A stretch of DNA of 64,000 nt. Source: a phage. This document shows, in pieces, positions 4,281-7,571 of this stretch. The stretch lies in the NCBI GenBank assembly GCA_033286805.1, contig GCA_033286805.1_4727.1; one strand, written 5' to 3'. The first letter of the stretch is position 1, and each line of letters opens with the position of its first letter. The position numbers were made by a program, and so were the translations under genes. Below the pieces are notes generated by a model, which was not told the origin of the DNA, searched no databases, and worked only from the letters and a program-made list of their open reading frames with translations.

Positions 4281-4649
4281 TTATTTATCGGGGTCTGGAA
4301 AATAGTAAAATCGCCAATGCAACATAGAGATCGCATTTCTTATTTGATTCGCACGAACACAGCGTCCGAGAAAGGACTTGTAGCAAGAATCGCAATCCAT
4401 GAACAACTCATGGCTCGATTTCATCAGAACCACGATGTCTCTTATATACGAATTGCAGTACTCGATAAACGGGTCTGTATCGTACGTATATTTCCTCGCA
4501 CTACCTATCCCCAACTCTCTATTTAACTCACGACAATTTATCATGAGCTTCACATAACGGATAAGCCGAACGAAGTCACGTAAATTACGATTAAACCAAT
4601 ATCGATACCAAAATGACTGTATACTCCGAACAGTTCTATTTAACTTCAT
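4281..4649 (-). CDS. hypothetical protein
   Basis: 122-aa ORF. Confidence 0.45.
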   Translation of the reverse strand: MKLNRTVRSIQSFWYRYWFNRNLRDFVRLIRYVKLMINCRELNRELGIGSARKYTYDTDPFIEYCNSYIRDIVVLMKSSHELFMDCDSCYKSFLGRCVRANQIRNAISMLHWRFYYFPDPDK

Positions 4650-5280
4650 TGATACCTTCTATTAGTTGTACAGCAACTTCTTTTTCGGTGCTATAAAAGA
4701 ACTTGCGGTGGAACTGAACAAGAAGCTTTTCGAATTTACATTGAACGATCTTTTTGCGTTCGATATGACCCAGGGAGAGCAAAGCACCCATGCAACGTAC
4801 CGCTTGTTCGAGAACCTGTTTCGCGGTATCGTGATCGTCCGGTAACGGTAAATCTTCCTCGTCATCTTTAGCGATAAGACGTCTAATGATGTTATCGATA
4901 CGTATCTCATCACCGTTAATGAAAGCGCCTTTCTCCCATTCATCAAATCGTTGATGGATTCGACGTTGTAAGTTGGCCCTGTCTTCCGTTAACTCTTTCA
5001 ACTGGCTTTCTAAGTGGGATACGGTACGGCGGTCGGTTTCAGTGAAGTTTTCCGATTCTTTGTACCACCAATCGTTACGCGCTTGTAAGTCATTAATGCG
5101 AGAAATCGTCCGACGACACTCGTTAACAAACGCATCGCCGTTCGATAGCTCCGTACCGAAATAGCATTTGTATTTATAACGCATAACACGGATTAAACGT
5201 TTCGTTAGAAAACCTTGTTTCTCCAGTTTCTTCTTCAGTTGGGTGTATTTCTCTTCTTTTGTTTCCGCGATATCTTTCAT
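4636..5280 (-). CDS. hypothetical protein
   Basis: 214-aa ORF, charged/coiled-coil-like composition. Confidence 0.5.
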   Translation of the reverse strand: MKDIAETKEEKYTQLKKKLEKQGFLTKRLIRVMRYKYKCYFGTELSNGDAFVNECRRTISRINDLQARNDWWYKESENFTETDRRTVSHLESQLKELTEDRANLQRRIHQRFDEWEKGAFINGDEIRIDNIIRRLIAKDDEEDLPLPDDHDTAKQVLEQAVRCMGALLSLGHIERKKIVQCKFEKLLVQFHRKFFYSTEKEVAVQLIEGINEVK

Positions 5281-5627
5281 GCCATATTCTCCGTTATATG
5301 CTTTAAACTGTTACGTATACTTTTCAATCGGTGGTTAAATCCGGAACGATAACATTTCCGTACAACCCTTGGCGCTCGCGCTTTATTCGCCTGATGAAGC
5401 TGTTCATTCACCTGCGACGCTATACGTAAACGCTCTAATAAAGAGCTCAACCGAATGACAACCAACGGTTGTTCTTTCACCTTCTCTAGTTTGAGTAAAG
5501 AGTCAATATGAAACTTTATATCGATAATCTGATTCCTGTTTTTGCGGTACTGATGAATATACCAGCATCGACGAAAATAGGCGATGCTAAGCATAGGGTG
5601 GATCCTCTTCAACGCTATCTCCAACAA
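5277..5627 (-). CDS. hypothetical protein
   Basis: 116-aa ORF. Confidence 0.45.
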   Translation of the reverse strand: MLEIALKRIHPMLSIAYFRRCWYIHQYRKNRNQIIDIKFHIDSLLKLEKVKEQPLVVIRLSSLLERLRIASQVNEQLHQANKARAPRVVRKCYRSGFNHRLKSIRNSLKHITENMA

Positions 5628-5812
5628 TACATCGGATTAGGTGATTTATGGCATTTATAAATACCTACTTTCTTCTGTCTACCTTTACCTGGGCCTCGTT
5701 TAACGCGTTTGTTATAAACACGACCCAAATATCGAGTGACGATAGATCGGGATAAATACATCGGATCGATATAATCCAGAGTACCCGCTTCTGTTTCTTC
5801 GAGGCATTGCAT
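5615..5812 (-). CDS. small basic protein, KxGxxKGK-motif paralog 1
   Basis: 65 aa; VKRGPGKGRQKK motif shared with two neighbouring small ORFs. Confidence 0.4.
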   Translation of the reverse strand: MQCLEETEAGTLDYIDPMYLSRSIVTRYLGRVYNKRVKRGPGKGRQKKVGIYKCHKSPNPMYCWR

Positions 5813-5838
5813 GCGTAACTCCTCTTTCCTCTAAGAAG

Positions 5839-6045
5839 TCAATCCAGCATAAGCCACGGCATCGCTTTCGCGATAGAATCCACCGCAGCATTTGCGATCC
5901 TTCGTTCAGTCGTTGGTACCACGTGCGCCACGAACCGTTTCCCTTTATTGCAACCTTTCTTGTGTTTTCCTTTGACCAAACGAACACCAATCATGTCGTT
6001 GATAACATGATTTAGTATGTGGCGCTGTAGAGAATTAATCATCAC
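5839..6045 (-). CDS. small basic protein, KxGxxKGK-motif paralog 2
   Basis: 68 aa; VKGKHKKGCNKGKRF motif. Confidence 0.4.
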   Translation of the reverse strand: MMINSLQRHILNHVINDMIGVRLVKGKHKKGCNKGKRFVAHVVPTTERRIANAAVDSIAKAMPWLMLD

Positions 6046-6181
6046 TTTTACTCCAGGCAGAGAAGATTCTCGGTTTTAGTTCTATCTGTCCGCATATCCA
6101 GGTGTATCTCCATTTACCTTTACGAGGACCTTTCTTATTTTTAACACCTATCAGAATACGATAGGGGTACGACCAAGTCAT
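6035..6181 (-). CDS. small basic protein, KxGxxKGK-motif paralog 3 (48 aa, not in ORF track)
   Basis: ATG at 6181 with AGGAG SD 7 nt upstream; translation MTWSYPYRILIGVKNKKGPRKGKWRYTWICGQ... Confidence 0.35.
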   Translation of the reverse strand: MTWSYPYRILIGVKNKKGPRKGKWRYTWICGQIELKPRIFSAWSKSDD

Positions 6182-6210
6182 TGTAAACTCCTAAATAAAT
6201 CTCAATGTTC

Positions 6211-6537
6211 TTAATGCAGTTGCTTCTTAAAACCTAATTTAAGAAGCGTCATTCTCTTGTCGATGGTATCTAATGCTTCCAGCAAGGATTCACGCTGTTC
6301 TTTCGTAAGCATATCGACGCGTAGACGTTCGTTAATTTCTGCTTTAAGCTGTATAGGAAGGGTTTGTGTAAGTATGCTATCAGCCTCCATCTCGTAACTA
6401 TTTTTCGGTGTGGGTAATGCTTCAGTAACACCGGTGAGATAAAAACCGATAGTGGTTACTCGTTCATCCATTGCTTCTAGCAGTTCAGAACTTACTTCAT
6501 CCACGATAGTTCTCCGTATTAGGGTGGGCGTACCCAC
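6211..6537 (-). CDS. hypothetical protein
   Basis: 108-aa ORF. Confidence 0.45.
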   Translation of the reverse strand: MGTPTLIRRTIVDEVSSELLEAMDERVTTIGFYLTGVTEALPTPKNSYEMEADSILTQTLPIQLKAEINERLRVDMLTKEQRESLLEALDTIDKRMTLLKLGFKKQLH

Positions 6538-6551
6538 CCTCGGTTGTTAAT

Positions 6552-7571
6552 TTACACCGCCACCTTAGCCTTGATAGCGGGGTGTGATTGATATCCGACG
6601 AACACAAAGTCTTCGTAACGGTAATCCGTAATACTTTCCGGTTTACGTACGATTGTTAGCTTCGGTAATGGGTACGGCTCACGGCTGAGCTGCTCTTTAA
6701 CCTGTTCGAAGTGGTTATGATAGATGTGGCAATCTCCACCCGTCCACACGAACTCACCAACGTCCATATTCAGCTGTTGGGCAAGCATATGCGTCAGCAA
6801 CGAATATGAGGCGATGTTGAACGGTGTTCCGAGCAACACGTCCTGTGATCTGGCTAACAGCATACAAGACAAGGCACGTGTTGGTACGTTATGCGCATTC
6901 AACCAAAGTTCCGTTTCACTATGTCGTACATCATCCGTAACCCACTGGGTTCTTAATACGTCGTTGCGTTGAACATAATCAACGCGTTCATCGACTGTGA
7001 GTTCGTGGGTATAGAACTGATAGAAACTGTGGCATGCTGGAAGCGCCATATCGTCTAAATCGCCTACGTTCCACGCGCTAACGATGATCCGTCGAGAATC
7101 AGGATCTTCTTTAAGCTGACGCATCACGTTTGCGATTTGGTCGTGGTGTTTAACATACAAGAGATGTTTGACCATACCGGCGTCAACAACACCGCAATAC
7201 TCATAGCCGCGTTGCATCAACTCACGAGTACGTTCTGTATCGTGCGGGACAACCATTTTGTAGTCGATCCATTCCCGCCATTGTTTGCCGTAAATAGGTC
7301 CTAGATTCCCTTCTTCGTCAGCCCACTCATTCCAGATGCGAACACCGTTATCCTGAAGATAAGCAACGTTTGTATCACCATTAAGAAACCAGAGCAGTTC
7401 GTGGATAACGCTCTTAAGGTGAATCTTCTTGGTGGTTACCAGCGGGAATCCTTTCTTCAAGTCAAAACGCATCTGACGTCCGAATACGGAACGGGTCCCG
7501 GTGCCTGTACGATCAGCTTTATCACGACCATTATCCATGATGTCTTGCAAAAGGTCCAAATACTGTTTCAT
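6552..7571 (-). CDS. thyA: thymidylate synthase (ThyA) with two internal insertions
   Basis: MKQYLDLLQ...DRTGTGT...FPLVTTKK...[20 protein letters not shown], catalytic-Cys region PACHSF all align to bacterial ThyA; GAGGA SD before ATG. Confidence 0.9.

Follow-up and report, generated by a model that had tools for sequence, protein, structure and literature searches.

Three adjacent small genes of a Goslar-type phage share a basic lysine-glycine octapeptide

A conserved octapeptide in three adjacent small genes

A 64,000-nucleotide stretch of phage DNA (GenBank assembly GCA_033286805.1, contig GCA_033286805.1_4727.1; hereafter the window) carries three consecutive minus-strand genes, here termed A, B and C, whose small basic products have one lysine- and glycine-rich octapeptide in common. 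Over region 5200-6600, the window shares 96.5% nucleotide identity with Escherichia phage vB_EcoM_Goslar (NC_048170), a nucleus-forming E. coli jumbo phage of 237 kb, whose annotation already has all three genes as hypothetical proteins. A first-pass annotation made from the sequence of the window had described three small minus-strand open reading frames (ORFs), and all three were confirmed where it had placed them. Gene A (6035..6181) encodes a Trp/Tyr-rich protein of 48 amino acids (aa) with a net charge of approximately +8; both the ORF and its Shine-Dalgarno (SD) sequence AGGAG at 6192-6188, 6 nucleotides (nt) before the ATG and also reported earlier, were read directly from the sequence. 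Gene B (5839..6042) encodes 67 aa if read from the ATG at 6042, the start annotated in Goslar, or the 68 aa given in the first-pass annotation if translation begins at an alternative GTG at 6045 (6045..5839). Gene C (5615..5812) encodes 65 aa and is preceded by the SD sequence GAGGAG at 5824-5819. The respective Goslar orthologues are gp139 (48 aa, 100% protein identity), YP_009820823 (no gp tag, 67 aa, 98.5%) and gp137 (65 aa, 87.7%), which have the same order and spacing and show no difference in kind.

The motif strings quoted for the three ORFs, GVKNKKGPRKGKWRY, LVKGKHKKGCNKGKRF and RVKRGPGKGRQKK, are all present. A pattern scan located KKGPRKGK at residues 16-23 of A (6113..6136), KKGCNKGK at residues 28-35 of B (5938..5961) and KRGPGKGR at residues 38-45 of C (5678..5701). 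Thus, the earlier proposal of a common K-x-G-x-x-K-G-K motif holds insofar as the motif occurs in all three proteins, but C ends in arginine and the pattern has to be rewritten as K-[KR]-G-[PC]-x-K-G-[KR]. In a six-frame scan of the window, K[KR]G..KG[KR] occurs exactly three times, always in A, B or C, and the looser pattern [KR][KR]G..[KR]G[KR] likewise gives exactly these three. Approximately 0-0.03 occurrences are expected in shuffled sequence; this figure is post hoc, since the pattern was taken from the three proteins themselves, but the occurrences are clearly clustered. The motif is likewise present exactly three times in each of six additional stretches of Goslar-like contigs (L003 and L005-L009, of which L003 and L005 derive from one contig), namely in the orthologues of A, B and C.

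Over all six frames of a Goslar-type genome (~237 kb), the motif occurs four times and always in annotated ORFs of 48-69 aa. The fourth copy, from a six-frame scan of the rest of the genome, is KKGPGKGK in gp102 (YP_009820787, 69 aa; minus strand, Goslar NC_048170 112303-112512, equivalent to L012 12604-12813), which lies outside the window at approximately 18 kb from the trio. The four proteins have net charges of +6 to +9, with A, B and C at about +8 to +9, and their motifs begin at residue 16 in A, 28 in B, 38 in C and 51 in gp102.

Family alignments show the motif to be the best-conserved segment of A, B and C. All four homologues of A agree at every residue from K16 to I29. Among the 10 members of the B family, K24, G25, K26, K29, G30, N32, K33 and G34 are invariant, and Cys, Tyr or Val occupies the position of the loop proline of A, C and gp102. 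The 56 sequences of C all have R39, with conservation of at least 90% at K38 and G40-R45. The motif codons differ among A, B and C, indicating that conservation acts on the protein and not on the DNA. A DNA-level repeat or an RNA element in place of a protein motif was rejected on the same grounds, and because the trio region has no match in Rfam.

A, B and C are separate genes

A, B and C are three separate genuine genes. Compared with Goslar, the protein sequence of A is unchanged and all three nucleotide substitutions are synonymous; the changed codons are seven synonymous and one non-synonymous in B, and five synonymous and eight non-synonymous in C. Ratios of non-synonymous to synonymous substitution rates (dN/dS) were calculated by the Nei-Gojobori method, also against two more diverged metagenomic relatives, L006 and L007, with a dS of approximately 0.4-1.3. 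Against L006 and L007, dN/dS was 0.18-0.36 for A and 0.16-0.37 for B, and the latter was 0.04 between the window and Goslar. For C the values were 0.35-0.62, with 0.35 for the window versus Goslar. For reference, neighbouring hypothetical genes gave 0.1-0.3 and thyA 0.04-0.14. The starts, stops and SD sequences of all three genes are kept in the diverged relatives. In addition, A and B share 8 nt, from the ATG of B to the end of A, in the window, Goslar, L006 and L007, and this conserved overlap suggests translational coupling.

The ORFs are very short and a 92-codon minus-strand ORF in another frame (5712..5990) spans the region, as might be expected if the region were a single frameshifted pseudogene or if the small ORFs were non-coding. 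The first-pass annotation had dismissed this longer ORF as a probable shadow, correctly so, since in Goslar its start codon is lost and it has an internal stop. Relative to Goslar, it has eight substitutions at each of the three codon positions, changing 17 codons non-synonymously and 6 synonymously, whereas the substitutions of A and B are mainly at third positions and mostly synonymous. Together with dN/dS values below 1 for A, B and C, control signals conserved at such divergence and the lack of an Rfam match, this makes a pseudogene or non-coding origin extremely improbable. The first-pass annotation had named such a pseudogene and a lack of expression as the two findings that would speak against the genes. 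The substitution pattern and dN/dS contradict the former, and published Goslar RNA-seq reads, described below, demonstrate expression at the transcript level.

Similarity among the motif-bearing proteins

The trio had been interpreted as a duplicated family, a view that finds no backing in the sequences outside the octapeptide: beyond it, no similarity among A, B and C was detectable. When the four proteins were anchored on the motif, the ten flanking residues on each side were no more alike than random protein segments (z = 0.2). Profile-profile comparison of the A, B and C families with hhalign gave probabilities of 0.5-4%, with only 6-17 residues aligned. Smith-Waterman (SW) scores, judged against composition-preserving shuffles, were raised for A-B (z = 4.5) and A-gp102 (z = 4.7), in alignments of 14 and up to 16 residues centred on the motif, and were not significant for A-C and B-C (p = 0.07-0.13). 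A profile built from the C family and gp102 and searched against all 4204 genome ORFs of at least 30 codons retrieved only C and gp102; A appeared with E = 1.9 and B was absent.

On the other hand, C and gp102 are probably true paralogs, the only pair for which this could be demonstrated from the sequences. Their SW score is 64 (z = 9.2) over 36 aa, with the common pattern D.I.P..LS...VTR...N.R.K.GPGKG. The alignment of the N-terminal flanks keeps its register when the motif is left out (p = 0.007 with C of the window and 0.002-0.04 with other C orthologues). The GPGKG codons, GGC CCA GGT AAA GGT, are identical in the two genes, for which the chance is approximately 0.007 given the local codon usage. 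The homology covers about 36 residues, but the N-terminal region of gp102 is longer and its motif lies near the C terminus. An IMG/VR scan with the C/gp102 alignment confirmed gp102 only in Goslar itself, so the near-identical 237.5-kb contig in that database may lack gp102 or have a diverged version. A non-systematic check of the Goslar literature found no mention of the shared loop, of the fourth member or of the C/gp102 paralogy.

The octapeptide also occurs in other phage proteins. An IMG/VR scan for DNA encoding KKGPxKGK returned at least 120 loci. Among the matches listed, the majority come from a single family, phrog_32989, whose proteins have 54-82 aa and end in ...EVEIGATGTQRYRIKKGPNKGKIL. 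This family is widespread in Pelagibacter phages of the podo, sipho and myo types (HTVC106P, Kolga, Lederberg and HTVC008M; IMG/VR loci L018-L132, for example L026 1539-1706 on the minus strand), and its presence in unrelated phage types on one host hints at a host-directed function. Like A, B and C, its members are small (~55 aa), with a helix-like N-terminal part and a strand-like segment followed by KKGPNKGK; unlike them, they have the motif at the extreme C terminus with no second strand after it, and their hosts are unrelated. The phrog_32989 profile hidden Markov model (HMM) did not match A, B, C or gp102, although it matched the pelagiphage proteins at 1e-10 to 6e-16. The octapeptide further lies between strand-like segments in a His-Me/HNH endonuclease (GYGKMNMRF-KKGPRKGK-VKSALAHR) and in Mu-type portal proteins. 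Recurring in loops of unrelated phage proteins, the octapeptide behaves more like a portable loop than like the signature of a family.

If A, B, C and gp102 all went back to a single small gene that was duplicated in tandem, and had since diverged until only the loop remained, this would account for three adjacent genes on the same strand with similar size and charge and a shared octapeptide. The A-B and A-gp102 scores are in line with such an origin, and the paralogy of C and gp102 shows that duplication does occur in the group. However, those two alignments do not extend past 14-16 motif-centred residues, and the flanks, the hhalign comparisons and the C/gp102 profile all fail to connect A and B with the rest. 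The motif also sits at different positions, the predicted secondary structure of B differs (helix, short strands, helix), and the same octapeptide has arisen in clearly unrelated proteins, which makes convergence feasible. On balance, common descent of the trio is considered somewhat unlikely, and convergence among A, B and C/gp102 is plausible. The case cautions that a short motif common to adjacent small ORFs need not mean tandem duplication. Whether the three genes descend from one ancestor is a question independent of their function.

Distribution and variation of the three families

All three families appear restricted to Goslar-like phages in the searches performed. A tblastn search of A, B and C against 50,697 phage records matched only Goslar, and IMG/VR scans found only Goslar and one near-identical contig. 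In a search of 5.8 billion proteins, matches came only from Goslar-like contigs of 233-249 kb. At 90% identity these form a single cluster for A (on 26 contigs), 9 clusters for B (all from Goslar-like contigs) and 55 for C. An exhaustive hmmsearch with the B-family profile against 1.84 billion representatives returned nothing outside the family. Pfam, PHROGs, PDB and fold libraries gave no family match; the profile libraries Pfam, PHROGs and NCBIfam returned only sub-threshold noise such as DUF7439 (E = 0.03-0.14) and ICMT.

The most diverged relative, L006 (Logan ERR14800508), has a homologue of A of 96 aa (4334-4624), in which a 48-residue acidic N-terminal extension precedes the conserved module; the 48-aa form in the window and in Goslar thus reflects an indel of approximately 144 nt. 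The variation of C is concentrated in residues 1-31 (window 5720-5812), where positions 6, 13, 18, 20, 23, 25, 26 and 30 toggle among two to four residues. This variability could reflect relaxed constraint, or diversifying selection with recombination. Positive selection on C was considered and is not established, as dN/dS is 0.35-0.62 and reaches approximately 1 only in one lineage comparison of the C-terminal half, with very few sites.

Resemblance of B to glutamyl-tRNA synthetase

Residues 30-67 of B (window 5839-5955) show a weak, ungapped resemblance to the same-numbered residues 30-67 of glutamyl-tRNA synthetase (GluRS), the β2-αB segment in the N-terminal Rossmann part of the enzyme. 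When the B-family profile was searched against the PDB, the only two matching sequences were both GluRS, at a borderline E of 0.04, with 14 identities over 34 ungapped residues. An hhalign comparison with E. coli GltX placed B 30-66 on GluRS 30-66 with zero offset (P = 8.7e-5, probability 60%), and the probability rose to 83% against the first 120 residues of GltX. The SW comparison gave z = 5.8. Single-sequence searches with B and with a 61%-identical homologue, P0008, retrieved the same GluRS chains, although at E of only 0.17-0.39. Residues common to GluRS and B include F37, V38, T44, R48, M61, W63, L64 and L66.

These matches raise the question whether B is what remains of the 5' end of a GluRS gene (residues 1-67) after exaptation, with the basic loop elaborating the GluRS loop before strand β2. 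The zero offset, the exclusive retrieval of GluRS from the PDB and the independent retrieval of the same chains by P0008 speak for such an origin. Nevertheless, the database E-values are borderline (0.04-0.4) and only two GluRS chains were matched. With 67 aa versus ~470 aa for GluRS, B is without the HIGH and EDTD signatures of the enzyme, and the Pfam and NCBIfam GluRS models matched none of ten B-family members, so that B does not group with the class I aminoacyl-tRNA synthetases (PF00749). Furthermore, the homology could not be extended into C, and hhalign found nothing for A or C. A GluRS ancestry of B is therefore regarded as doubtful. It would concern descent and is compatible with any functional model.

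Two related candidates were rejected. By eye, B and C together resemble a split GluRS-derived gene (...PWLMLD/YIDPMY...RY...YKC in B/C versus ...NWLSLE/WDEGPYY...RY...YKC), with a CTGGATT repeat at the junction. A fusion at residue 14 of C was the best extension (+13), but this gain was equalled by 57% of shuffled C sequences and 34% of real ORFs. Relatives do not retain the repeat, and no alignment of C with this part of GluRS was obtained by hhalign. Neither hhalign nor SW gave any signal for A as a GluRS fragment.

Predicted structure

AlphaFold2 (AF2) predicted A as one long β-hairpin with strands 3-14 and 24-35, with a mean predicted local distance difference test score (pLDDT) of 78 and values above 90 for residues 11-30. 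The tip of this model is made up of residues 15-23 (N-KKGPRKGK). By alternation, W3, Y5, Y7, I9, I11 and V13 of the first strand and W24, Y26 and W28 of the second would line a single aromatic/hydrophobic face. The AF2 model of the B family has a pLDDT of 58.8, with a helix at 4-18, short strands and a helix at 46-60, and is too poor for a fold search.

Several known elements offer a comparison. The tips of the β-ribbon arms of HU and IHF, which contain Gly and Pro and are basic, enter the DNA minor groove. The model of A is likewise a long two-stranded β-ribbon with a Gly/Pro-containing basic tip, but the tip sequence differs, and the loop proline present in A, C and gp102 is replaced by cysteine in B. 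No match to this family (Bac_DNA_binding, PF00216) was found in Pfam at E up to 10, and the model of A is a bare hairpin that has no helical dimerisation core. AT-hooks and KOW motifs are short Lys/Arg/Gly(/Pro) elements that contact the backbone or groove of DNA or RNA, the KOW loop lying between two β-strands. The GRP tripeptide of AT-hooks (PF02178) is absent from A, B, C and gp102, and none of the four matched the AT-hook or KOW (PF00467) models at E up to 10.

Transcription of the motif-bearing genes

Transcription was assessed from Supplementary Table 2 of bioRxiv 10.1101/2023.09.20.558163, which reports RNA-seq of Goslar at 30 min post infection. Reads at this time were 174-222 for gp137, 191-219 for the untagged YP_009820823, 62-92 for gp139 and 274-322 for gp102 (bioRxiv 10.1101/2023.09.20.558163). 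On knockdown of ChmA, these four genes changed by log2 fold changes of approximately -1 to +1.3, and the structural genes by -3 to -7 (bioRxiv 10.1101/2023.09.20.558163). In the same study, the early class is transcribed in the injection vesicle before the phage nucleus forms. A, B, C and gp102 hence behave like early-class genes, in that their transcripts persist despite the block of nucleus assembly, and gp102 does not differ from the other three in this respect. The "gp139" in the text of the Goslar virion mass-spectrometry paper is that of PhiKZ and not the Goslar orthologue of A.

Possible functions of the octapeptide

Small size and strong basicity make nucleic-acid binding a reasonable guess for A, B and C. 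By analogy, they may be small early basic accessory proteins that act through the loop on phage or host nucleic acid, a tentative reading to which somewhat less than an even chance is given. According to it, proteins made from the thymidylate-synthase operon of a Goslar-type phage, with early-class transcription, would use the Lys/Gly-rich loop to grip DNA or RNA at the phosphate backbone or in a groove, much as the HU/IHF β-arms or the basic hairpin loops of ribosomal proteins do. In A, the octapeptide would be the solvent-exposed tip of the predicted long β-ribbon with its one aromatic face, and A and B would probably be made in fixed proportion via translational coupling. The reading draws on the presence of the same loop in the HNH endonuclease and the Mu-type portal, both of which handle DNA, and on the nucleotide- and DNA-metabolism neighbourhood of the genes.

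Several observations weigh against a nucleic-acid clamp. Pfam, PHROGs and NCBIfam revealed no nucleic-acid-binding domain in A, B, C or gp102. The octapeptide is found in the same setting between strand-like segments in an HK97-gp10-like tail protein, which has no obvious nucleic-acid role. The hairpin is predicted for A only, and from essentially one sequence, and the poor model of B does not put the motif at a hairpin tip. Finally, gp137, gp139 and gp102 are not named among the entries listed in Table S4 of the Goslar virion mass-spectrometry study, which is suggestive only.

Small proteins that resemble each other in a motif alone typically point to a linear motif. The octapeptide might instead dock to one common partner protein, for example a host protein or an acidic surface on the machinery of the phage nucleus, of import or of the cytoskeleton. 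The loop is indeed invariant while its surroundings drift, as in C with its polymorphic N-terminal part and fixed loop, and all four genes behave alike in transcription when nucleus assembly is blocked. However, the motif of A falls within a predicted rigid hairpin and not in a disordered segment, and Lys/Gly-rich loops are generic binders of polyanions. Docking to a partner in place of nucleic acid is accordingly judged unlikely.

Peptides rich in Trp/Tyr plus Lys/Arg are typical of membrane interfaces. The composition of A fits this description, and its predicted ribbon combines an aromatic face with a cationic tip, as would a cationic amphipathic β-hairpin peptide acting on the host inner membrane or the early-infection vesicle. 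On the other hand, the sequences show neither a signal peptide nor a transmembrane segment, the aromatic pattern of A is missing from B, C and gp102, and the genes lie among those of nucleotide metabolism. A membrane-active role of A, B and C thus seems highly unlikely.

A broader and more speculative version of docking treats the K-[KR]-G-P-x-K-G-[KR] hairpin tip as a portable address or docking signal that several unrelated early micro-proteins of Goslar-type phages acquired independently, and phrog_32989 by convergence. It would direct these proteins to one shared target, for example the early-infection vesicle, the shell or import route of the phage nucleus, or a conserved polyanionic machine of the host. 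The probability of this reading is low; if true, it would provide the first description of a linear targeting motif in a nucleus-forming phage.

Goslar serves as a model for nucleus-forming phages, and no role is known for most of its early small genes. The four early-class micro-proteins are united by one invariant and probably surface-exposed basic loop, which provides an eight-residue mutable handle on their binding and localisation. Should the loop act as a nucleic-acid clamp, the proteins would represent minimal modules for binding DNA or RNA; a role as a docking signal would be relevant to protein sorting around the phage nucleus.

Gene neighbourhood

A, B and C belong to a run of co-oriented minus-strand genes (4636..7571) delimited from the Goslar annotation, a terminator scan and the RNA-seq data. 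According to the Goslar annotation, the order is thyA (gp141-like, 7571..6552), a gp140-like gene (6504..6211), A, B, C, a gp136-like gene (5594..5277) and a gp135-like gene (5280..4636), all on one strand. Because no minus-strand terminator-like site was found between 8538 and 4000, the trio is most likely co-transcribed with thyA; the density of RNA-seq reads per nt is broadly alike from gp141 to gp135. The neighbourhood is one of nucleotide and DNA metabolism, with thyA in the window and genes for a Dam-type methylase and a ligase downstream in relatives. On the plus strand, an inverted repeat with an 11-bp stem followed by a T-rich tract (6221-6248) resembles a terminator and lies within the 3' end of the minus-strand gp140-like gene.

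The thymidylate synthase of the window (6552-7571, minus strand) has 339 aa. E. coli ThyA has ~264 aa, and the longer phage enzyme therefore probably carries insertions. The gene is called as two ORFs of 87 and 234 aa in L009 (2781-3750) and as one of 320 aa in L008 (6024-6986), calls that could be due to frameshifts or assembly errors. The block from thyA to gp135 is a hotspot of small-gene gain and loss. Between thyA and gp140, the relatives L007-L009 contain an extra gene (L007 7038-7313) for a 91-aa protein with a helix-turn-helix-like C terminus (...GKEIAKRYGLTPSRITQIVKEI...), and L006 has an extra ORF of 132 aa (5407-5805) between gp136 and gp135.

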